DNA from: Bispira polyomma
Lineage: Eukaryota
Reading direction: 5' to 3'
NCBI GenBank assembly: GCA_965649765.1
Contig: OZ287760.1
Location: 17,298,001-17,362,000 of the forward strand
DNA: 64,000 nucleotides
Part shown: positions 2,799 through 61,854 of the stretch, in pieces
Layout of the letters: every line of letters begins with the position of its first letter
Numbering within the stretch: position 1 is the first letter of the stretch
Made by a program: the position numbers and the translations under genes
The notes under the pieces: generated by a model
What the model was told of the DNA's origin: nothing
Databases searched by the model: none
Seen by the model: the letters and a program-made list of their open reading frames with translations, nothing else

Positions 2799-3474
2799 AT
2801 GAACTCCTATTTCAACCACCACTCCTTTATGGGTGGAGGTGGCGGGGTGGGAGGGGGCGTCCTCCCTAACGACGGTTGCGGTGGCAACGTCCTCTCGGCG
2901 ACCAACTATTCGGCCAGGTATGACCACCACCAACTCGCCGCGGCCGCCACCGCGGGCAACCAGTCCCTGTACCATGAGAGCAACCATCAGGCCTCCTCTC
3001 AATACGCCCACTCCAGTAGCCCGGGACTAGGGGTGGGGGTCCCCAGTGGTGGTGGTCAGGGCAGCCAACAGCATCACCACGGCGGCGGCGGTGGGAACCT
3101 GCAGCCGCCTCTCGGAGACGGTGGTGTGTGTGGTGGGCGGGGAGTGGTGGGCGCCCCGCCGGAACTCAACAACGGCTTCGACAGCCCCCCTCAGGGCCAC
3201 CACCACCACCTCAGCTCCCCGACCGGGCACCACTGGGGTATGCAGGCATCGGCCCTCACCGCCAACCACCAGCAGGCGTCCCCGGGCAACGACTCCCACT
3301 ACCACGGCACCAACGGCAACGGGCTGGTCGTCTCCTGCGGGGACAGCAGCGCCTACAACCCGGGTTCGAGTCCCATCGGCCCCAACGTGGTCAACAGTAA
3401 CAACAACCCAGTGGCCTCAGGAGGAGGGGGACAGCAGCAAACCATTCCTTTTTACCCCTGGATGGGGGTCGTGG
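2799..3474 (+). CDS. Lox4: Hox gene Lox4 (Ubx/abd-A class), coding exon 1
   Basis: ATG at 2799 (GACCATGA context) opens MNSYF, the conserved Hox N-terminal SSYF-type motif as in Ubx. A Gly/His/Gln-rich region follows, ending in the hexapeptide FYPWM and GVV-G. Donor G|GTAGGT at 3474/3475 (phase 1) joins in frame to exon 2. Confidence 0.95.
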
Positions 3475-6282
3475 GTAGGTTATTATACAAACAAATGTAT
3501 TAATAATAATATATATATATATATATAATGTGTATATTAATCCAAAAGAATATACACCCCTGCATACATTTATGATCAGTAGCAGTGCATCCACACCCCA
3601 CTCCCTCTAATTAGTATTATAAGTGTGTGTGTGTGTTTTCTGTTGTATATAAATATTATAAAAAAGAAATCCCAACCATGTGTTTTAATGTTGACTTCTT
3701 TATGTACTACCACCAACTATTAACTAACTACCCACAACATTCCACCACTGAATTGAGTTTTTACTCGTTTTATGACAAACCATATGGGGCTATTTGTCAT
3801 CTCTTTTCCCCCTACAGTTAAAACATGTTTCAAAACACACACCAACATCATTTCCCCCTCACTCACTCTTGAGTTGGTTTTATGATTTTATTTATGAAGT
3901 TGTTCCAGCAAGGGGCTTTTGGTGCTGTGGTCGGTCGGTCGTAGTAGTATTTGTGGTGGTGGTTTATTAGCGAGTTAATGGGCCTGAGCACCCAACGTGA
4001 AGTGGCAGTTTATTGGCTATTGATAAGATGTATAAAGGGCAATTGGTTTTCATGATGGTGGTTGAAAATAAAAGAATACTCATAATAATCATAATGGTAC
4101 TATAAAAGGGGTATATAAAAGAGAGGGGAGTTGATTTTGTGAGTACTATATATATATATATATATATTATGGATAGTGTTACTACTACATCACTAATTAC
4201 CTCGTAACTATAACCATTAAGCCACACTATAACTTGCTCAATGAAGACGAGGGAATATAGAGAAGTGGGTCTGTTTTTATGTATATGGGCCAGTAACAGA
4301 TTCATTTGACTCTTGTCTTCTTTCTTCTTCTTTCTTTTTTTTGACATTATAACCAGCTGATTCCTGTGTCTGTTGCACATGACTGATGTGTGGATATATA
4401 TTACCCAGTTTTACTGCCACATTGCAAGCACAGTGAGGGGCGGATATTTCTCTTCTACACTTTAAGCACAATAATAATAATAAAGAAACAAAAAAACATT
4501 GTAAACACAACACACATGGGGAGATGAGCTATGATCGGCAGTAAATCTGTTATTAGTTTTATTTCTTTGGCCTGGCCTTACACAGGGAGAGTACCCGTTT
4601 TCTCCTATCTCTCCTCCCCCCCCCCCCCCCCCAGTCCCCTTCCATGTGCGAGCTATGAAATATTGGATATTCTATCAGACGGTGCTGCCCCTCGTGGGAA
4701 GTCTTAGAAATAGATGACAGGAGGAGAAGTAGGTATCCCAAGGTTTTTGTGTGTACAATGAAGCCTATATCTTTTCCATTTTCTCAGCGTGTATAATAAG
4801 GTCTACTCCTCCCATCTCCCCCCCATATGGTGGCTGGCTATGTAGAATGGTTGTGTCTGTTTTTCCTCCCCTGCAGAGAATTCGGTAGACAACTTGGTCA
4901 GATTCCCTTCATTGCCCACCTGGAACAGGTTTGATGATTACTATTATGATTCGTCCTGTCCTGTGCAATAAGTAAGTGGAGTTGTTCTGCTTACTGTGCA
5001 GTGTATGTGTTAGTAAAAAAATACTATGTATTAGCTCAGTATATGATTGTTATTAGTAGTCATTTTATGTGGGGACAGAAATGTTAGTATATGTCTCAGT
5101 TAGCATTTCTCCATCCTGTCGTGTGGGCTTGCATGTACACATGTGTACATCTATTTTGCCAAATTTCATTTTGAATTATTATTAAATCTGTCTTCAAAGA
5201 AAATCCAAAATCAGTTTACATTTAAATCTCCGCTGTTAGTATTTTTTTTCATTTACGTGGGTGAAAAAGAAGATCTGATCTATTTGTTTGTCTGTTGTAC
5301 TGATCTCTTGTGGGCTTGTTTATAGCCCTTAAATACATGTTTTTGTACACAATATAAGCTATCAATATTTACTAATTTCCTTATATTAAGCCTCAGAGTA
5401 AAAAAGTTTAAAACTTTTTTTGGAACAGAGCTGTTTGAATTGGACCTCTGAACTTCATGTATATAATGTAAAACACATTTAAAGCTTATGACACATTTAC
5501 CAGAGCGGACCTGTGTGAAGTCAGATTAATTTCAAAAATAACATCAGTTTTTTTGAAGTGAGGTATCCAGAAAATAATCAACTAACCATAAAAAATCTGG
5601 GGTGTAAGTATGGCTATAGATTATGTAACCCTATTCATGGGTGGTATGAGATTATTGTTATTTTACAGGGGAAAAGCACTTAGATCAAAGTTACCATAAG
5701 CTCTCTACCATGTCTTGATGCTTTTTTACCATATAATGGTACTTTAATTCTCCGAGTAGGTGTCAAATACACATGTAGACCTTAAAATACCAACAGCCAA
5801 TGATTTATTGGGCCCCAAAGCAAAGTGTGAATGGTCTATCTTACATTAGCATAAATGATATTGTACATACTTTTGCATTAACATTCAGTTGGTGACAGAC
5901 GCATGCTTATAAGCATATAGTGATATACTGCTTCACTATTTATCTGGTCATTTCAAAAGCCATGCAGTGGAATTTCGTTGCATGCCCAACATTGTCCAGT
6001 ATTACACCTTTAAACACAATGCCAGCTTATAACTACTATTTGAAAACACTGCAACAACAGCCCAATTGTTTTGACTGATGAAAAAGGTCCTGTCCAACAA
6101 ATGAGGCTTTTAAAATACAATATATAGCTTAAATTGTTTCCACATAACATTTTTTTTACAATTGCATTATAATAAATCCACAGCTTCTATTGAGCCTAAA
6201 TTAATTTACATATCGACTAATTAAACATAGTGACATACAAACATATTAAAAACATTCTAATTTAATACAGACGCAATACCTT

Positions 6283-13018: not shown

Positions 13019-13357
<339 letters not shown>

Positions 13358-14212
13358 TAGTGTAATTTTGCAACCTCAAGCAATCTTTCTACTACAGCCA
13401 TATTCTGCAACAGAAACTGTCATGTCCAAACTCTACTCATCCATTCACTTAAAACACTTCATGCGACATATTCTTAAATACATTCCGGGCTAGACGGAAC
13501 AAAAAAATGGTTGAAATCTAGTCAAAACACCAATCATTTAAACAAAACAAGGAGTCTGAGTTCGGTCTGACAATTTTTGAACAGAGGATTGGCATTAGTT
13601 TATATGTACGTGTACACTTACGTACGTGCTATGTATTCTGATGTATAACTACATGTGTTTTGTTTTATATTTAAAATACAGGTATTCTGTATTTCCATGT
13701 CCCCTGTTAGACAGTTGTCAAGACCCTCTTGTGATGTTAGTTAGGTGGCATTGCATCATCTTCTATACACAAAGTATTATATTAGTAGATATATTATATG
13801 GAGCACACTCAGAAGAGGCTCTCAAATGCTATAGCTGTTGTCTATACACATAAGACACTTAAACGTTTTCTTTATGTTGTCACTGTAAATTAACAAAATT
13901 TAAACCAAAAAACCACAAAGAGCTTTAAGTTGGGTATATTTTATTGTCAAATTGATGGTTAGTGTGTTAGCATAGATGACCATTTGGATGACTGTACAAA
14001 CAAGTATTTAAGCACGTCTGAACAGTGTGAAACCTTTTTTTTCCTTACAGTTGATCAGCATAATTAAAGTTGTGGCTTAAACATGCCTAAGTGGAACATT
14101 GATTCACATATTGCATTCATTAAAAACATTGTACTTACTCAGTCTGTAATTATGTTGCCCTCCAAACGTTCCAAATCTAACTGGTATTCTTCTTCTGTCT
14201 AGCAGTATGGTA

Positions 14213-14545
14213 ATGGTCCATTCATATTGCAACAAATCCTTATTTATCAAAGAATTCGGCAATATATACGAAACCGAATTTGATACATTTACAGTACATA
14301 CACAGCCGAAACATTCGGCCGAATCTTGCGCACACATAGCACTTTTCCTTATATTTAGATGGTGCTGTTTTATTTCCGTTTGCTTTTATTTATCTCCCTC
14401 AATAATTCGTGTGAAAATTAGAAAAGCGATTTGTGCAACTTTTAATCCCTACCGAATTTTTAGATCATTATCCTAATTTGTTGCAGTGTGAATATTCATG
14501 GTAATTTATAAGAACCAACGATACGTTGCAATGTGAATGGGCCAT
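14213..14545. mobile_element. MITE (non-autonomous DNA transposon) in putative 3' UTR
   Basis: 21-bp TIRs ATGGTCCATTCATATTGCAAC / GTTGCAATGTGAATGGGCCAT (2 mismatches), plus an internal subterminal copy at 14476-14492. Confidence 0.7.
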
Positions 14546-17065
14546 AAGTGTAAAGCAATTTACTTGGCAGTGCACTCCCTACATATTGGCCGTTCAGAAT
14601 GCTTCATAAGCATGCAACGTTATTGCCAAGTTATTCTTCAATGATATTAACAGTAAGGCAAAATGGAAATACGTGTAGATACCATTGCAACATGCATGCT
14701 CTGAAATGAAAATACACATTATCATGTAGTTTTTACCCTTGTAATTAGGTAATATGAGTTAAATATGGTATATATTCCTGTTTTACAGGATGCCCTAGCA
14801 TGTCAATTGTTTGATTTTGTTGTAAGGATCTGATGCCAGATGTCATGCTGGTAGGATCAGACTGCAGTGGCATGGTTATCTAATGAAATGGTGTATCTCT
14901 GTCTGATAACTGACATCTTGATTTGGCTCTTTTTTGATAGAAACACAGTTCACAATTGGTTTGTTAAAGCCTTTGATTCCTTATGTAATATTGATGACTA
15001 GATCGGCTCTTCCGGTTTGTCCATAAGTATGATTTTAGGACAAACTTGATTGCTGCATCATTTTAGTCTGCACTTGCTGCACAATGGAACAGGTTGAAGT
15101 GTCATATAGTGGGTGTTCTGAAGAGTATACACCTACCATTGTAAATTTTGCAGCTGGTAGGTTTTGCCTTTAGATGGAAATGCACTGAAGACACATGGGT
15201 GGTTAGAAGTGTTTATTGACTGTGTGGCTTTGGATATTTTGTTCATAATGTAAGAGGATTTTATTTTCAAAATAGGCAGTTGTAAGATTCCCTGAAGAGA
15301 TCTGTGTGCATAATAAAGCGGTTTCAACCATTTTTGTATATATATTTGATGGGGTTCCTCTCTGCTAGCTTTTCTTTGGCTAATTTCAAGACAATAAAAC
15401 ACTCGACAAGACTTGTTGCATCCTTTCACACTTCTCATCTTTTGCTGCTATTGATTAATGACTTTGCTTAAAGCTCTCCCTTTAGCTTTCTTTCGGGACG
15501 GTTTGAGTAAGGCTTATCACGCTTCATTGCATCTCTTGGCTGCATATGCACAAGAAACAATTGGTTTTGAATCTTACGTGTTCTTTATGTTCTACACATA
15601 TTATTATAGCTAAGGCAGCCCACGTGCAGCTACACGAATCTCGTGTGAAGAATTTCATCCACATTTTATTTCTGTTTTTTATTACTTTACAATGAAATTA
15701 CTACAGAAAGTATTCAGCTGTTTTAAACAGTAGATCTTGATGTTGTGGATTTCGTGAATGTTATCGTCTGTCTTTGTCCTATGCTCTCTACATATATATG
15801 TAATATGTATAATTATGTTTGTGCATATTTAATACCTGATTGTTCCTTTATTATAGAGTGTATACATATACCATAGTTGTTTGTATGTCGTATGGAGGGT
15901 AAAATAGTATCAAAGGAAGTAGGAAAGGGCAGAACTTTGAAATTTTCTATAAACAATAAATGCAACCCGGTGAATACATCTGAAGTCAGTGTAACTGTCC
16001 AGCATTCAATGCTGATTTCAATTGTTTGCTCTAAACCTGCCCAGCATTGTACACAGGATTGTATTGATGTTGTGAGAAACTCTGTAGTTTAGGATTTTAA
16101 CTGTTCACTGGTATTGAATTAACCAAAGATTTTTTCTAGTTTGTTTTGCAATTAGGTACTCTATATGGTCTCGGTGGAATAATTATTGTAATGTAAATTA
16201 ATTGTTGTTTTGGCGTTGCTCTCACCAAATGCAATCAATGTCAAATCACGAGCTCTTCCCAGAATGTGGATTTTATAAAGGTGTAGTATACTGCAGATTG
16301 CAGGTATATATCATCTTTCAGATCACAAGTAACGTTTTGTCCTGTGAGAATGTAAAGTGTAAAGATACTAGTAATATCTGAAAACAGGAACTTTTTGGGT
16401 GCATAGATCTAAGTTATTTAATTTATTTAAGTTACAAATTGTTAGCTCTCAATTCAGCATCCATACCATTAGATATTTGCCCACATTATTCAACATTCAA
16501 GTTACTTTGACTTTTTGAACAATTTGCTTGTCCACAATTTGTCAATTTAAAGAGGTTTTGAATGCTAGATGTTTATCCGTTTATCCAGATGTTTATTCCA
16601 GTGCAGATTACACTGTGGATATGTCTCTACTGACAGGTATATTTATAAATGCATTGCTTAAGGCCTGGTCTTATTTAGACGTACGTACGCAGTTGTCACA
16701 TTTCCGACATAAATTGTCACTTTTAATAAAACCTGCCATAAATGGTAGTAAGTCCAGATCAAAATATTTTTAGCAGTGTTACGATTCATCATTTACCAAG
16801 ACGTTGCTGAAAATGTTTAGCAGGGCTACTTTTCAGCACAGATTCCCACAGGTTGGCGTTACGTATCAGTGAGACCCAGGTATCAGATAGTGTTTGCAAT
16901 ATATTGGTCATGTTCACCAAATTGTTTCTGTATTAATATACTTTGAGCTTACACTTAACATGCCTTTATTCTAGATAGAACTGAAGTTTATTACATTTAG
17001 AAATTGTTTGTTTTGGTGTTGCAAACTTCTGCATTTTCTTTGATGGTCAAGTAATATATATTAAT

Positions 17066-17077
17066 CTACCTCAGGGA
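17066..17077 (+). promoter_or_regulatory. Overlapping let-7 (CTACCTCA) and miR-125/lin-4 (CTCAGGGA) 8mer seed sites
   Basis: CTACCTCAGGGA seen directly; complements of let-7 UGAGGUAG and miR-125 UCCCUGAG. Functional only if inside the 3' UTR. Confidence 0.5.
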
Positions 17078-18343
17078 GCATTTTAGAAGTGTCACTTTGC
17101 TTTTAAGTCATAACTTTAAGACTAGAAAAAATAATAAATCCATTAAAATTCATTTTTCTGCAGGCAATTAATACTGCCATAGAGGCTTTAACAATGTTCA
17201 TTAAAGATTATTAGCTCAATTTGAATTAAAAGTAAAGTAGCTCTTCTTTATGTATCCATAGTTATAGGTGTTTATAGCAACAAACTATATTTATTCATGT
17301 TGATAACTAATAACTGGTGTATATATTACAAAGTTGTTTTATAGGTAGGCTTAGAAAATTAGCTGACAGACTTTAATTTTGAGACAAATAGCTACTGTAA
17401 TACATGTGTGGTGAAACATCAAAGAAGTATTCCTAGGTGCTACCAACTCAATGGTAAAACCTTATATGGAAACTATTTTATAATAATATTACACATATAG
17501 TAAGCCTGAAGGTCATCCTGCATGTCACATAACACGTACAGTTATAGCGGTAGTAATCAGAAGTTTGATTACCATATGTACACGTATAATACTACACATG
17601 CAATCATAATGTTATATCAATCATGATATTGAAGTATAAAATAGCATCAGCATGGAGTTGACATACCATATACTTTCATTGGTTTGGTAATTATTTATCT
17701 TTTACTGTCAATTATTGCAAATTGAGTCTCAACTCTAGTTAGACATGTATAGTGTGTAACCAAAAATTTGCCCAAAATCTAAAATTCACAAGCCATTGGT
17801 GTCATGAAGTTATAAATATCCAACCAAAAATAGATGGTCATAGAATGGTGAATTTTAGATAGGTGAAAATATTAGATTTTGTGTGAAACAAATATTAATT
17901 TATTGTCTTTATCTTGCAGAATACCTCAGATATTAACTGTTGTAGCAAAAGCGTTATTTATTTGTCCATTTGTTATTTGTGCACGGATAGCAAAGTTCAT
18001 CTGAAAGTACTAAATGTTTTGTTATGTATGTGACTAGAATTCGGTGTTACAGTTTGTAGCTATATTTAGATATTTATAAATCCAGTTCTAGTTGTTTATC
18101 TGAAATGGGCTGGTATCCACAAAGATCGCTGTCCCCAGCTGTTGGCTTGTGAAACTACACTAGTGCCTGAAGTTGGCCAAGTTAATGTACAATGTTGTTT
18201 GAAATCATATTTATATGGTATAAGTATTCATTCCTTACTTGGGCAAGGGGATGCCCTTCTATTTTGAATGTGTTTTCCCTGTTCTAGGGCTTATCCTTGA
18301 TATATTAATGCCAGTGTGTGGCGGTGTGGTTTTAAAACAGCAT

Positions 18344-18717
18344 TAGTTGACGTTTCCATGCGGAAAATTTTCTGAGGCGATGAGCCGACAGCAATTGTAT
18401 CAGTTTCATTGAGTTAAAACCAAGCTTTTTCCTGTTAGCAATGCTAATATGCAAAGGGCAATGCAAGGCAAGTTTTTTTGCTATCAGGAGCATCGCATGT
18501 AAACATTGCTGGTTCTTTATTAATAACTAAAGGTAAAAATTGAAAATTATTAATTTTTAGTTGGGTTTATTGTACTTTTCGGTTGAGAAATGGCTAAAAT
18601 ATTTAGGTTTCAAAACAGGTATCCATTTTTAAAATAATTCTATGGAAACGTAAAAATTGCCAATTGCCCGTCCGACGTCGGCTGGTCGTTAATTGCAGAC
18701 ATGAAAACTTTCACTTA
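18344..18717. mobile_element. MITE family M1, copy 1
   Basis: Imperfect TIRs (AGTTGACGTTTCCATG / CATGAAAACTTTCACTT). The interior matches the reverse complement of 61192-61854 (e.g. TTCTGAGGCGAT and TTGTATCAGTTTCAT). Confidence 0.75.
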
Positions 18718-20277
18718 CTTTCATGAATACCAGACAGCCTTACTCCAGTATAATATACAACCTAATTCCTCTGCATTTAGTTTTGCAGTTTCAAGTCCAC
18801 AAAATGCATTAAAGATATAGTTGCTTTGATTAAGGTAAATCAACATACTATTTCTAAATACCAGGTTGGATATGTGATTCAGTGATACAATATATAACAT
18901 GTGGTATATTTAAGTGCAATTTGCTAGTTCTCTAGACTCTGTGTTTTTGTTTTTTTTTTTCATTAAGGTTAGAACCATTTTCTAGTCTTGTCTGAATTCC
19001 ATTTTGCTATATGTTGGGGCCATGTGAAAGTGCTCAAGCTCAACTCAGGAGAGCTTCCAAAATTTATAAATAAATCAAGGGCCCTGTGTGCAATTTGTTC
19101 AATCTGGTCAGTGTGTGAATTGAGCGTGGGAACTTTCAGTTCAGATGGTTGGTTGGTCAGTGGCGTATAGCCATTGCTGTAGAATTTTGGTGTATTTTCT
19201 TTGTTTACATGTATTGGGTAAAGTACAGGTATGTTCTGAAAGCTAGAAATGCTGTCGAGCTTCCTGTTCTAGTGCAACATAGGAAAGGTTTCTGGTAGTT
19301 TTCAACGGAAGTATTGCTGCTACTTAAATGATATGAATTTGCCATACTTTGCAAATGAACCGTATAAGTACTCCGAAATATAAGCCAGTTTTCCCTATTT
19401 ACTGTACAGTGACCGGTGCTTATTTAATGATTCCCTCACTTTAAATGCACCTTACACTGTTAATATCAGCTTCTAATTCTACATGTGCTAATCTGATAGA
19501 ATGACCATCTTATCTTTAATTCAGTATAAAATATTGAAAATTTTTAATGGCTTCCTAGAAATACTTTGAAAATGTTTTACTCTTTGCTTGCTTTACATCT
19601 TTTGTTTGTGGGACTACTTCTAGATTTCACTTCCAAGTCTGTGGTTATGGAAATTGTTTCTCTATTTGATAAGTGAATGACTACATGCATTGGTATACAT
19701 GTTGGTTGTTTTGAGCCTATTTTGGTGTAGTACAGTGTAAACATAACACAGAATCACTGAAGGCGCCAAGGCTCAAAAAAGTAACATTCTACATTACAAA
19801 TGATAATTTTTGTGTTAAAATTTTTTTTTTGTGATATTACCTAAATCGCACTTTGTAGTAAACTCCAAAAGTTAAATTGAGCCCATGTCTGTAAACACTT
19901 TCAAACTTGGGCCTTGGTAAGATTTCTATGAAGCAGTTATTTTTGGTTCTTGTCTCAGGTTCAGTTTTCTTAACACCAAACGTTAACCAGAACTACATTG
20001 GCATTTTCTCTTCTTTTAAATGGCTATGGGTCATTTCAGGATGAATTCTCACTTGTGTATATATTATATAAAATCATATTTTGTTACTCTTCCTATATAT
20101 TCATATGTAGCCATAACAATCTTATTGTAGTGTGTAAGTGGTTTTGTATATCTTTGTGCCATAAAGACAATCTCTTATTCTTAATATTTATGTGAAGTCA
20201 TTGTTTCTTTCTTCATTACAAAATGTGATTATGTTTTCAATGTTGCTGTATATTATTTCAGAACTTCACTTTGTTGA

Positions 20278-20283
20278 AATAAA
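20278..20283 (+). terminator. Candidate distal polyadenylation signal
   Basis: AATAAA with upstream TGTA motifs and downstream gtatatacatgttgtag...tttttatttttg. Confidence 0.4.
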
Positions 20284-20416
20284 GTATATACATGTTGTAG
20301 AAGCAGCTTTTTTATTTTTGCGCAAGAAACCATGGTACATTTAATATTACTCTTCTTTTATAAATGTGTTCCTATTGGATGTTTCGCATTAATATACTTT
20401 ACATTATAAGCTCCAG

Positions 20417-22786: not shown

Positions 22787-23106
22787 GGTTAGAGTGTCAC
22801 ATGTTGGATTTGAGTGATTTCAGACCCCCGGTTCGATCCCCACAGCTGCTGGAGATTGTAACCTTGGACAAGGTGCTTCACACAAAGTTGTCCGTCTCTA
22901 CCCAGGTGTATAAATGGGTACCTGGCACCTAAAAGTGTTTGTATTTGTATGCTGCATGTGGCAGCACAGCTGGTATGCTTCCTGAGGGAGCTGAGACAGA
23001 ACAATTGGTTGACAAGTAAAAGAACCTAGACTGACAGTGTAAACTGTAAAGTCGACTGAGACCTCAATAGAGGTGATATCAGACTATAAACCTACACACA
23101 TTTACA
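22787..23106 (+). mobile_element. tRNA-derived CORE-like SINE, copy 1 (5' end replaced by poly-C run)
   Basis: B-box GGTTCGATCCC; CORE-like CCTTGGACAAGGTGCTT...CCCAGGTGTATAAATGGGTACC; close homologue of 61257-61601. Confidence 0.85.
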
Positions 23107-24700
23107 CATATCATTTTATACGCTGTCTTTTGGCAGTATTTGATTTTGAGTAATTTTTACTATATTTTGTCTAATTGTAGTGTTCCACTTATGCAATTTT
23201 GAAAAGAGACTCCCGTTTAAGCACTGTGACAAGCCAGTTGCACGTATTTCACCTGTGGTCGAGTTTAGAAACAAGCGAGTGAGGTTGCGATTGTCAGAAT
23301 TTAGGGTATTTGCGGCATTGTAAATTTTTCGTCTAATGGCTCGCAAACAGCATCAGAGTCAAATTAGAATGGCAACCAGCTTTGCCATTGCAATGATCGC
23401 ACAGTTGATGGATAAGGGTTGCCCCAGTCGAGTGAATGCCCTATTAGATCCCCATCAAAGCTATAAAGATAATTAGTAAATGCGTTTTCAAGGCTGTCTT
23501 GACCACCAAAAATGACTTAAAATACCCTTACAAAATCGATCTTTTTTCCTGATAAGCTGATATTAAAGTAATGGATAGATGAAATAATTAAAAATAAGCT
23601 AGTTTTGTAAGATTGCATTATTCGCACGTGAAACAAGTTGTATTCAAATTAGAGGCAAGTTAAGAATGCATCATGGACATGGGCGAAAGCTAAAAATCGA
23701 ATGCAACCAGTGCTGACAAGTGCAATTTGTAGGTCGCATAGATTGCCCCCAAATTGCTAATTGAGATAACAGTTGGGGACGTAGCTAATGCAGTTATATT
23801 ATTAGTTTTAGTCTATAAACATTTTAATTTTCCAATGACTATTTAAAGATGGTCTGAATTAAAACCGGGACCTAAATATCCTTACAGTTAATTAAAAAGA
23901 AACATATGTAGTTGTTCTCTCACTTGAGATCTGGCAACAATAAGCATACTATTAAAAAGTCTTACACTATGTCATCTTAAGCAAGGTGCACCAACTATGA
24001 GGAAACATGTGATGTCATCTCTTCACCGTCGGTAGGATGATTTGCTGTGTTACCAAATATCAGGGGACAAGCTTCAAAGAAGCGTCAAAACAAACACTTA
24101 AGAAGACTGCAATCATAAAAGGGATATTGTAAAGTGCCACACAGTAACAAAAAAGACACCATCATAACCTCAGAGTACGAAGCTCTTTCTACTGTCATCT
24201 GTGTCTGTTTGACTTATGGTGTAAAACATGGCCTTATACAAAGAGACGTGTCAATTACACATTCTCATCTCATAAATCTCACAGTCCTGGCTTTTGAGAG
24301 GTTTTGGCTCGACACACAGGCTTCAAAAGTCGCCTCACCCGAGGTATGCTAATTTAAAGCTGTTTAGTCGAGTTAAGGTGATGGCATTACACTAAATATT
24401 TCATAAACTACCCCTGGCCATGGGGCCGGTGTATCACTTTGCTTTTCAAAATGACAGCTGCTCTGGGCGATATTTGATGAGTTCTGGGTGATTTATAGGT
24501 ATTTTATGGAGGAGAGGTCCGGCCAGGAAGAACTTACAATGCCATATAACCGACAGAGACTGTCACAGTAATTTAGTGGTCTTGCATGGCTGTGTGCATT
24601 AGATGTAAACAATACCTACTTTGTATCGAAGTTTAAGAGACAATTAGGCTGTCTCTTCTCTCCTTGTCTGTATGTGTCTTTTTTGTGCATTACTTTTCTA

Positions 24701-29729: not shown

Positions 29730-30062
29730 TGTGGTTATACTGTCAGACATTGGATCTGAGTGATATCAGAGCCCTGGTTCGATCCTATCCTTGCTGCTGG
29801 CCTGGAGATTGTACTCTTGGATAAGATGCTTTGCACAAAGTTCTCCCTCTTTACCCAGGTGTATAAATGGGTACCTGGCCGCCAATGTGTATTAGTTTTG
29901 TGCGCCCTGTATGGCAGCATGGCTAGTATGCTTCATGAGGGAGCTGAAACTGAATAATTGGTTGACAAGTGGAAGAACCCAGGCTCGGGTAATAATGTCA
30001 AAGCGCATTAGATAACAATGATGTTCATAACTGCACTATATCAAATGAATAATTATTATTAT
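29730..30062 (+). mobile_element. CORE-like SINE, copy 2 (different 3' tail)
   Basis: GGTTCGATCC, CCCAGGTGTATAAATGGGTACCTGGC and GAGGGAGCTGA...TTGGTTGACAAGT are shared with copies 1 and 3; ends in (ATT)n. Confidence 0.85.
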
Positions 30063-32105: not shown

Positions 32106-33787
32106 ACCTCTTCCCACATTGGCTAATTGGCTTGGCGATAACATGAAATATTGTGCTATCACAAAGGGTTCTCCCGATTGTCTCCTGTATGTCTCCTTAA
32201 TTCCTTTTGGTGTATCTCTATTCTCTCCAGTAATCGTCACTGCTAGATTATCAGGACACATAATTTGAAAATGTTCAAATTTACAGCCAAACGACAAACT
32301 TTTGAGGCGACACTGAGGAGGTAATTGCCTATTGACTTATTCTTGCCGACCTGTTGCTTTGATGTTGTACCATTGTGTTTATTGTTTTCCATTTTTACTA
32401 TACCAATTGAAGTAGGTGACAAGCGTTAGACATTAAAGAAAAAATCGCATTAATGTCTCACGGTGATCTAATCACTTGTACAACTACCAAAAATGGCCAC
32501 TTGTCGCACCGTTGTCATATCCTTTTCTCAATGTTGTTTGACTGTGGTATCATGACTGTCCAATCTCAGGTGTCATCATACTGTCTCAACAATGGCATTG
32601 AAATGCCTTTTTTGTTGTTTTTTCCCCAGGTCAATGCACATGAACAATGGTGACAAGCACTAACAAAATATTGCAACAGGGTTCTTTATTATGTCACTAA
32701 TGTGTGACGCCGGTTTTACCCTGTTCTTATCGCACCATTTGACTAGCACATCGTGATACGACACTGGATGTGTTGAAAGCGATGTTACGGGTAACTAAAC
32801 TAGACAAGACAACTACTAACAGATGACAAGTACAATCATAGCTGCGCTCATTATTTATATGTTCGAAGATTAAGCCGTCTTCCTACTGTCATCAGGAGAA
32901 GCAACACAAATATATTTGTCTGTGATTTGCCATTTTAGTAATGCTTAAAATAAATGTCTTTTGAACAAAATCAGCAACAAGCATCTGACACATGAAAATA
33001 TTGCAATTGGTTGTTGACCATTATTTATCATCCGTCAGTGGTCCGCTATCTAGTAGCATCAGGTCTAACTGGATAGTTGCATCTGCTTGTAAATATATTT
33101 TCTTCTTCAGCATTCTGTGACAGTTTCCAATTTGTCTTCCAGAGTGCATTCTGCATGTTAGGCATTCTGCAAGACAAGTTTATATCCAGAGTTGACCAAA
33201 TTCCCACAAGTTGAGAACACATCTGATTTCAGAGGGGGGTGGTTACCATAACTGCAATTACAATATAGCAAACGATAATTTTCCCTTGATGTTGCTACTC
33301 ACCAAGCATCACGATGTTGCAAAAGGTCTCAGACAAATTGAAATAATATGAAGAGCCTAATAATAAAACATGATATCTGTTGCTCACATAGGCTTGGAAC
33401 ACCAACATTAAACTGTTAGGTCTCCTTAAGCATGCACTGTAATGGTTTTTAATAATCATTATGTATCTGTCCCTACAGAGGCTTTTCAACTCTGCCAAGG
33501 GGAAATGAGTATAACGCTGATGTTAATACATAAATCTATAGAGACACTGTATAATCAGTTCCTGACTGTCTTTTTGGTATCTGACAAATTGTGCTTGAAT
33601 ATGGTAAAACCTAGATAAAAACTATTGCTGGCTCATTAGTTCCGAGGCTCAAACAGGATCTGCTACTCTTCCTCCCTCATTCGTAGCAATGTTTTTTTTT
33701 TCTGTTAACCTTCCCTCTGTGTTATCTCTCTAAATACCTTCCTGAGGCACATGGTGATCTTTTGATGTGCACAAGATACCTGGGCCC

Positions 33788-46130: not shown

Positions 46131-46303
46131 TATCTGAAGGCCTTAATACCATCATTCCATTTGCATTATAGTAAAGTATATCAATTGGTTTCAACTTGTC
46201 TGTTCGACAATCCCTTTTTTTTGCAACAAGAAATCCTGGTGTAAGGCATCATTGATTGTCTGCTCAAACCCACTTCTTACATAACTTTCTACAATACTAA
46301 GAA

Positions 46304-46870
46304 GTGAGTTTAAGCAGACAGTGTAGACTCTTTCTATCACTCCAAATGACTTTACAATTTACACCCAGCTTGTGTTCTTCTAGTTGTCAACCAGATGTTC
46401 ACTCTTATTCTCCAAAGGGGGGCCGCAGTGGCCTAGTGGTTAGCAAGCGTTGCGCTTCACAATCACTTGGCTCTCACCTCTGGACGGCGTGAGTTTGACT
46501 CCTGTCCATGCCTATATGGGAAAGGTGATAGTTCCTTACTGTGGGCCGCTGGTTTCAGTGCAGAACCTTGATCAACTGTATGCAGTGTTACTTCCAGCAT
46601 TTCCAACTACTGTTCCCAATATAACCTAAGCAGGTACTAGAGTGGACGTTAAATATTCCAATTTAAACTTAGTCTCCAAGGGTAGCATCCTAGGCAAGCT
46701 GCCATATATACTCAAACGGTAACACCCATTGATACCCATGAATACATCTGGGTGGATGGGGAAAAATTGAATGAAGTTCCTTGTCCATAGGTTCAATCTT
46801 AAGGCCTGCAGCAATGTTTGATCCTCTGATCTAAAGGTGAATGCTCTAACTGCTGGACACTAAGACCACA
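46304..46870 (-). mobile_element. Old CORE-like SINE, split by a younger SINE insertion
   Basis: 46304-46403 is the reverse complement of the family tail (GACTTTACAATTTACACCCAGC...TTGTCAACCA). 46680-46870 is the reverse complement of the body and head (GATACCCATGAATACATCTGGGT...CCTTGTCCATAGG). Confidence 0.7.
46416..46667 (+). mobile_element. SINE family A, second copy
   Basis: Colinear with 31877-32105 plus a short extra internal segment; TSD CTTA(T/G)TCTCCAA at 46404-46415 and 46668-46679. Confidence 0.9.
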
Positions 46871-47939
46871 GTGCAGACAGTCATACTTGAGAGTATTCAC
46901 TTGTGCATTTAAGTTTTGGCATATTAATTGAATATCACACAAAATGTTGTTAGCAGATATTTGGTCCATAATATCTATACAGGTGTACACAAAGGGGCAT
47001 CTTGTACAACAACCCATAGGTAAATGGATTAAAGGTCCAAAAGATTATTTAAAGAGAAAGACAGAAAATACATTTGTGTTACTAACTTGAGGATGTTATT
47101 GTTGCATATATAGCACATGACACACATCTGATTGCTACATTGTATGCTATATTGTGCACATCATGCCCATTATATCGTCAATGTAATTATTGACAATTAC
47201 AGTTAAATGTGTACACTGTGTCTTTATCTGGCTCTTGCCACTTTAACAAGTCAAAAGATTTAATAAATTGTTCTATTGGATATACTTGTATGCAGTTTAG
47301 TGCTAATAAGATATTTTATTCATTGGTTGAAACTATTTGAACATATACGAATGCATAGCGTTATCAATCTAGGTGATGACTAGCAACTGGTGCTTTGCCT
47401 CAGACCTCTCTTATTGTAGCTTTTTATCTTTGCCCGAGTATGTACATACAAAGTTGGCAGTAAACCGGCGTAAGGTTTTTAGTTGAAAATCTTGGACCAA
47501 CTATTTTGTTCCACTATCCAGAAATTACCTTATTGTCATAATATTATACGTAGTTGTTGAAACTCAAACTACATTTAAATCTAGAAATTTAGGTCAAATG
47601 GCTAATATATAGTCACATATATGACTATCACCAAACCAGATTCTACCACTAAAATATGTTCTGTTTGGACGAGGTGATAGAAACTACTTGTATACTATGA
47701 CCTATACCTACTGAGTTTTTAGTCAGTCAAACTTTATCTGTGATGCATACTTATGCACAAATTTAATGTTTAGAAACACTGAATGTTATTTATATAGAGT
47801 TGGTATGGGAAATGTATAGTAAAGCTTCATGGAGTGCAGAATGATGACTGTCTTATTGTTCATCAGTTCGCCTAAGTAATGCCTCACTACTTTGTCAGGC
47901 AAACTATAGCAACAGGTTGCCATCTTTTGTTCCCATACA

Positions 47940-61191: not shown

Positions 61192-61854
61192 AAGTGTATG
61201 TTTCCATGGCGGCAATTGCCGATGGGCAATCAGGCAACGGCCGACGGCAATTATGTGGTCTCTGTGGCCTAATCGTTAGAGTGTCGGACTTTGGATCTCA
61301 GGTATCTTGAGAGCCAGGGTTCGATCCTCGCCTGCAGGCTTGGAGATTGTACCTTTGGAGAAGGTGCTTTACACAAAAGTTGTCCCTCTCTACCCAGGTG
61401 TATAAATGAATACGTGGCTGCTATTGGGTGTTAGTCTTTGTGCGCTGCATGTGGCAGCATGACTAGTATCCTTCCTGAGGGAGCTGAGACTGAAAAATTG
61501 GTTGACAAGTGAAAGAACCCAGGCTGGGGGTGTAAATTGTAAAGTCGGCTGAGACCTCAATAGTTGTGATATCAGACTATAAACCTGCACACATTTACAT
61601 TATCAATTTGTTATGTAATATTTAAAAAAAAACTTGATACCTGTGTTTAAACTTAAGACTGCTAACAAGGCAATGAGCAATGTCAGGCGATTTTTGCGCT
61701 CATGGTACCGGAAAAAATCACCTGGCATTGTCTATCGACTATCGGCGTTGCTCACATGAAAACACTTGATTTTTAATCTATGAAACTGATACAATCGCCG
61801 TCGGCCGTCCCCTTGATCGCCTCAGAAAGTTGCCTACATGGAAATACTCACTTA
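61192..61854. mobile_element. MITE family M1, copy 2 (interrupted by a CORE-like SINE)
   Basis: TIRs AAGTGTATGTTTCCATG / CATGGAAATACTCACTT; inverted homologue of 18344-18717. Confidence 0.75.
61257..61601 (+). mobile_element. CORE-like SINE, copy 3 (full length)
   Basis: A-box-like TGGCCTAATCG, B-box GGTTCGATCC, CORE-like domain and tail GATATCAGACTATAAACCTGCACACATTTAC. Confidence 0.88.

Follow-up and report, generated by a model that had tools for sequence, protein, structure and literature searches.

The Lox4 locus and its 12-mer

The window, by which we mean the whole 64,000-nt stretch of DNA analysed, lies within the Hox cluster on contig C13, where every gene is on the + strand, and its sole homeobox is that of Lox4. 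The gene was assigned from an alignment covering 81% of the query, at 97% identity, with a Urechis protein that carries the name Lox4, and its exon junction (MGVVG-PNSSQ) agrees with a spliced Lox4 mRNA (L016). The features needed here are as follows.

2799-3474 (+): Lox4 coding exon 1, from the ATG to the hexapeptide YPWM, with a GT donor at 3475; from the sequence and the junction
13074-13357 (+): Lox4 coding exon 2, with the homeodomain and the stop codon TGA at 13355-13357; from sequence comparison
17066-17073 (+): let-7 8mer seed match, read from the sequence
17070-17077 (+): miR-125 8mer seed match, read from the sequence; its CTCA is also part of the let-7 site
17922-17928 (+): let-7 7mer-A1 match, TACCTCA, at its background frequency (0.045 per kb)

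We take L098, L099 and L100 to be Lox5, Scr and Dfd, respectively, from their peptide motifs. An Antp/Hox7 homeobox was detected neither between Lox4 and Lox5 (G000:C13:17311354-17419323, by tblastn to 17412000) nor genome-wide, and this gene may have been lost or may be missing from the assembly. The Hox cluster also holds four miR-10-family hairpins, two of them flanking Lox4 (L135:6810-6880, 3.2 kb before the window; L186:4858-4930; L181:468-535; L124:821-897); Hox-cluster miR-10 paralogues are known in annelids (PMC12257675).

The preliminary description of this DNA had pointed to two full 8mers, for let-7 and miR-125, interlocked through CTCA in an AU-rich setting downstream of Lox4, with a second let-7 match further on, and all of these elements are present. 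The 12-mer CTACCTCAGGGA occupies 17066-17077 on the + strand, which is the Lox4 sense strand, 3,709 nt 3' of the Lox4 stop codon and within single-copy DNA; the second let-7 match follows 850 nt beyond it, and neither strand of the window harbors another let-7 or miR-125 8mer. The 30-nt flanks of the 12-mer are 73% A+U, slightly above the nearby DNA, which is barely lower at 65-71%. No other contig or genomic match covers the site. Three sequencing runs revealed no sequence variants at the site, a result that is uninformative on constraint; the runs are even over the intron and flanks and hence behave as DNA, and they may be the assembly's own source.

Predicted extent of the Lox4 3' UTR

The preliminary description had made its proposal dependent on a Lox4 3' UTR extending beyond 17.1 kb, for which base composition offers indirect support, with a T+G skew that runs to about 20.3 kb, and against which stand four polyadenylation signals that precede the 12-mer.

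13358-20300 (+): predicted Lox4 3' UTR of about 7 kb, from composition only
14290-14530 (no strand): high-copy repeat between the Lox4 stop and the 12-mer, seen as a depth spike
15312-16730 (+): four AATAAA (15312, 15393, 15955 and 16725), all 5' of the 12-mer
17133-17138 (+): AATAAA 56 nt 3' of the 12-mer, with a weak downstream element
18331-18717 (no strand): high-copy repeat within the predicted UTR, from depth
20278-20283 (+): AATAAA with U-rich surroundings, a candidate for the distal poly(A) signal; the skew ends about 100 nt beyond it

In the repeat-free DNA from the stop codon to 20300, the sense strand has a T+G skew of 0.087, as compared with 0.001 in the Lox4 intron and -0.004 beyond 20.6 kb, with a change point at about 20384. 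The skew continues past the last upstream AATAAA as well as past 17133 (0.099), and stops about 100 nt beyond the AATAAA at 20278. It starts about 1 kb 3' of the stop, with none in the first 1 kb, the change-point score was equalled in 7 of 78 overlapping control stretches, and the remainder of the window is itself mildly skewed (0.035), so that the skew does not prove a UTR. A similar pattern was found behind other Hox genes: in the first 6 kb 3' of the stop codons, the skew amounted to 0.057-0.085 in six of nine (Lox4, Post2, Lox2, Lox5, Scr and Dfd, with Hox1, Hox2 and Hox3 unskewed), while 2.9% of 136 background windows reached 0.075; the skew ends near an AATAAA at +6921 in Lox4, +7122 in Post2 and +6017 in Dfd. 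These compositional data suggest that these Hox genes may have unusually long 3' UTRs. Given the end of the skew near the 7-kb AATAAA and the five other skewed Hox genes, the 12-mer likely lies mid-way in a long 3' UTR, and we judge the odds to be somewhat in favor of its inclusion in at least one Lox4 isoform. In the spliced Lox4 mRNA of another lophotrochozoan, the UTR measures at least 1,987 nt and reads through an AATAAA. We regard this compositional hint of very long Hox 3' UTRs as a sturdier by-product of the analysis than the 12-mer itself.

The same region yields part of the case for a different reading, to which we give real weight while holding it tentative, namely that the 12-mer has no function, being a chance word or a worn repeat relic that is not part of the main Lox4 mRNA or goes unused. 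Use of any of the four upstream AATAAA would give an isoform that excludes the 12-mer, and among the signals listed, the downstream elements of those at 15312 and 15393 are the richest in U. In addition, 3' UTRs in Platynereis have a median length of 704 nt (PMC12257675). Against this reading, the skew suggests that the 12-mer is transcribed, the local sense skew of 0.086 around it being above that of all 40 other genomic copies inspected.

Antisense transcription has been described across the 3' end of Platynereis Lox4 (bioRxiv 10.1101/2021.01.30.428931), and the Platynereis genome supplements contain no entry named 'Lox4'. Two splice-acceptor-like stretches (pyrimidines followed by CAG) were noticed at 17150-17164 and 17903-17919, the second just 5' of the let-7 7mer; these could mark exons of another transcript.

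The microRNAs and the other copies of the 12-mer

This genome has its own let-7 and miR-125 hairpins (G000:C5:2026719-2026795 and about 2011043-2011134), and the mature sequences cut from them fit the seed sites in the 12-mer, so that the match claimed at the outset is true for the microRNAs of this very genome. The miR-125 is identical to the mature Platynereis sequence and let-7 differs from its Platynereis counterpart solely in the last letter (PMC12257675). An intact microRNA cluster has been confirmed in annelids (PMC3384580). The distance from miR-125 to let-7 is about 15.6 kb here (G000:C5:2011043-2028196) vs. about 1.4 kb in Platynereis (PMC12257675), a spacing that renders co-transcription less certain. 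Within the window, no microRNA hairpin matched Rfam at the gathering score, and at E<=1 there was just AT-repeat noise. A stretch at 32676-32793 combines a miR-10 7mer, an antisense miR-10 8mer and a miR-100 8mer inside 120 nt, with no Rfam hairpin.

A third reading, which takes up the 'either-microRNA' element of the preliminary description, is that of a selected dual element where let-7 would alternate with miR-125 on Lox4, lowering it in maturing segments of the nerve cord; we consider this unlikely. In its favor, the exact 12-mer is rare, the genome rate predicting 1.5e-4 copies per 7 kb and 1.3e-3 across nine Hox tails, both microRNAs come from one cluster, and the site lies on the sense strand of the skewed zone with a let-7 match 850 nt on. 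Genome-wide, the 12-mer occurs 44 times vs. 39 for the reversed control, so it is not enriched, and a count at the control level speaks for absence of function and against selection. In simulations of nine Hox tails, 8mers from 15 designated pairs overlapped in 0.8% of trials and any two of 60 random seeds in 59%, rates that are rough because the seeds were random. The 12-mer would thus be improbable at a single gene chosen beforehand and expected somewhere when many genomes are scanned, as the reading of no function would have it at 0.8% per Hox cluster for the designated pairs. The two seeds have CTCA in common, and hence a lone let-7 or miR-125 site turns into the 12-mer whenever four extra letters fit.

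We fetched 40 of the 43 other copies. Thirteen of these 40 are parts of a single dispersed repeat, which is about 330 nt long and which we presume to be SINE-like; 11 of them share an orientation and 2 have the opposite one. The repeat's core is near-palindromic and one or two letters off the 12-mer, and either of its strands can yield it. Its copies in the window are listed below.

22787-23116, 29731-30062, 61252-61607 (-) and 46303-46887 (+): copies of the 330-nt dispersed repeat

This repeat gave 16 matches in 360 kb of unselected DNA, and a 15-letter pattern over the 12-mer site had 679 near-matches vs. 15 for its control. Among 18 repeat copies picked regardless of the motif, the miR-125 8mer was present in 1 and the 12-mer in none. 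The 12-mer of the window continues with the GCAT..TAG of the repeat, and the similarity of the flanks by themselves had p values of 0.0007, 0.003 and 0.017 under three nulls, which fits a worn relic. Set against these numbers, its flank score was 18 as compared with 64-121 for members of the repeat and 22 for one non-member, a profile built from unbiased repeat copies found no match at the window's 12-mer, and there were no 80% matches. A repeat origin is therefore a weak possibility.

The other 27 copies are outside the repeat and have no UTR-like context, with a mean skew of -0.004 and positive values in 14 of 27, and this lack of preference for UTRs again counts against selection of the motif. 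From 129 listed open reading frames near these non-repeat copies, 97 were checked against Pfam, yielding reverse transcriptases and unrelated domains; no domains of lin-28, lin-41 or other heterochronic gene types were found among the 97, and lin-28, sought as a positive control, was not located. At L146:2797-3510 (-), an uninterrupted open reading frame of the p53 family, possibly a retrocopy, combines a DNA-binding with a tetramerisation domain.

Site quality, conservation and interpretation

Effective 8mer sites tend to have A+U-rich flanks, accessibility, 3' supplementary pairing and closeness to the end of the UTR, with the middle of a UTR as the least effective position. The 12-mer has the A+U-rich flanks; its predicted accessibility is average to poor, it lacks the supplementary pairing, and it is probably not near a UTR end. 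Neither let-7 nor miR-125 shows 3' supplementary pairing to microRNA nucleotides 13-16; the duplexes have predicted energies of -15.3 and -14.6 kcal/mol; the predicted accessibility is at the 49th percentile for the let-7 site and the 15th for the miR-125 site; and the local fold is predicted to be ordinary (z -0.62), with the 12-mer within a stem. With the signal at 20278 in use, the 12-mer would be mid-UTR; it would be close to the UTR end only with that at 17133. The 7 kb hold a single overlapped pair plus the 7mer-A1 at its background rate, and so fall short of several separate sites above chance.

We looked for the same sites behind the eight other Hox genes, with Hox5/Scr counted among them. 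In their first 6 kb, 7-8mers numbered 4 for let-7 vs. 3.5 expected and 4 for miR-125 vs. 3.4. Single 8mers on the sense strand occur behind three of the eight and on the antisense strand behind none, with 0.66-0.91 expected (P 0.03-0.06). Thus let-7 and miR-125 sites behind Hox genes are not enriched overall, with 8mers alone marginally so. The Post2 tail, with a let-7 8mer at +4.9 kb and a 7mer-A1 at +5.5 kb, is in line with a selected dual element. For comparison, miR-10 gave 9 sites vs. 3.0 (P 0.004), or 10 vs. 5.3 under a local model (P 0.045). Matches to AGGGTA, a word of shifted miR-10 seeds, cluster behind Scr (L099; 5 in 0.9 kb, +2339 to +3248) and behind Lox2 (L097; 4, +3467 to +4791), with one AGGGTAA behind Lox4 at 15896-15902 of the window; pooled across the nine Hox genes, miR-10-type words were not significant (P 0.08-0.14), and the clusters behind Scr and Lox2 fit with long UTRs. 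A sense excess of miR-100 8mers behind the other Hox genes (3 vs. 0) was discarded: one of them has flanks resembling the repeat at 18.6 kb of the window and another is repeat-like, both as judged by eye, and miR-100 was left out of later counts.

The conservation record is scant. None of 78 metagenome loci with a readable homeodomain end (among the best 80 of 222) carried the 12-mer, and neither the 12-mer nor the miR-125 8mer occurred in 15 Lox4-type loci, only 1 of which extends to 3.7 kb; a let-7 8mer was present in 1 of the 15 (29,918 nt, partly redundant). No downstream region of the Lox4-type loci aligned with the predicted UTR. In the limited orthologous sequence covered, no conservation was seen.

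Known co-targets of the two microRNAs provide both likeness and difference. In Drosophila, chinmo is, like the predicted Lox4 case, a transcription factor mRNA with let-7 and miR-125 seed matches, and its phased control is a precedent for a dual element; however, its sites are separate, conserved and numerous, six and four in 1.4 kb (PMC4979967), as against a single overlapped pair plus a 7mer in Lox4, both distant from the stop codon. Similarly, the UTR of broad-Z3 that carries its let-7 and miR-125 sites is an extended one that had not been annotated before, as predicted for Lox4, but its three let-7 sites and its miR-125 site are about 900 nt apart, conserved across eleven species and reporter-tested (PMC7144073). 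The same microRNA pair acts on lin-28 and lin-41/Trim71, targets that drop as the microRNAs rise (PMC4979967); annelid Lox4, in contrast, turns on late (PMC3734159). As for the miR-10 family, its sites are likewise found in long Hox tails, exemplified here by the AGGGTA cluster behind Scr, but they are clustered and the microRNAs reside inside the Hox cluster (PMC12257675), while the let-7/miR-125 match is isolated. Searches of the non-subscription literature listed no paper describing an action of let-7 or miR-125 on Lox4, or the 12-mer as an element; the only paper to contain the RNA form of the 12-mer has it within an unrelated siRNA (PMC12403323).

Expression of Lox4 bears on the selected dual element in both directions. 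In Alitta, Lox4 begins at the late nectochaete stage and its overall level climbs with age, which speaks against it, and there is also a posterior-to-anterior gradient in which Lox4 declines from the young segments at the posterior towards the older ones at the anterior, as such an element would predict (PMC3734159); in Capitella, Lox4 persists in juvenile ganglia (PMC4764619). This timing differs from that of a classic let-7 target that is switched off, yet it would fit a damping of Lox4 in older segments.

Sites that overlap cannot both be filled at once, and thus the mutual exclusivity of let-7 and miR-125 proposed in the preliminary description stands by geometry, while a selected element is not supported, given the genomic counts, the context of the other copies, the lack of conservation in the scant orthologous sequence and the late, rising expression in Alitta. 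The reading that we prefer, at a rough probability of 0.45, is an ordinary incidental overlap in which the 12-mer likely sits mid-way in a 3' UTR of about 7 kb and any damping of Lox4 by either microRNA would be modest at most; the weights given to the three explanations are a matter of judgement, not computation. With both microRNAs present, only one Argonaute complex would be bound at any moment, and the 12-mer would then act as one site answering to either microRNA, without cooperation. The 12-mer, the Lox4 gene, the microRNA genes and the strand skew are observed in the data; inclusion in the mRNA, binding, repression and the lack of selection on the overlap are all steps that we infer.

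We also entertain a broader speculation, which we deem improbable: posterior and central Hox genes might have UTRs of 6-9 kb, on which miR-100, along with let-7 and miR-125, would use distal sites, including the Lox4 interlock, to lower Hox expression as segment neurons mature. If true, heterochronic microRNAs would be tied to the segment-age gradient of Hox expression. In the preferred reading of an incidental overlap, the Lox4 12-mer would be an ordinary candidate site, the overlap of the two seeds is probably coincidence, and Lox4 may be added as a candidate to the co-targets of let-7 and miR-125. If the site is real, it would connect a central Hox gene of a lophotrochozoan with the oldest microRNAs of developmental timing, and would provide a compact test of the behavior of overlapping sites for two co-transcribed microRNAs.
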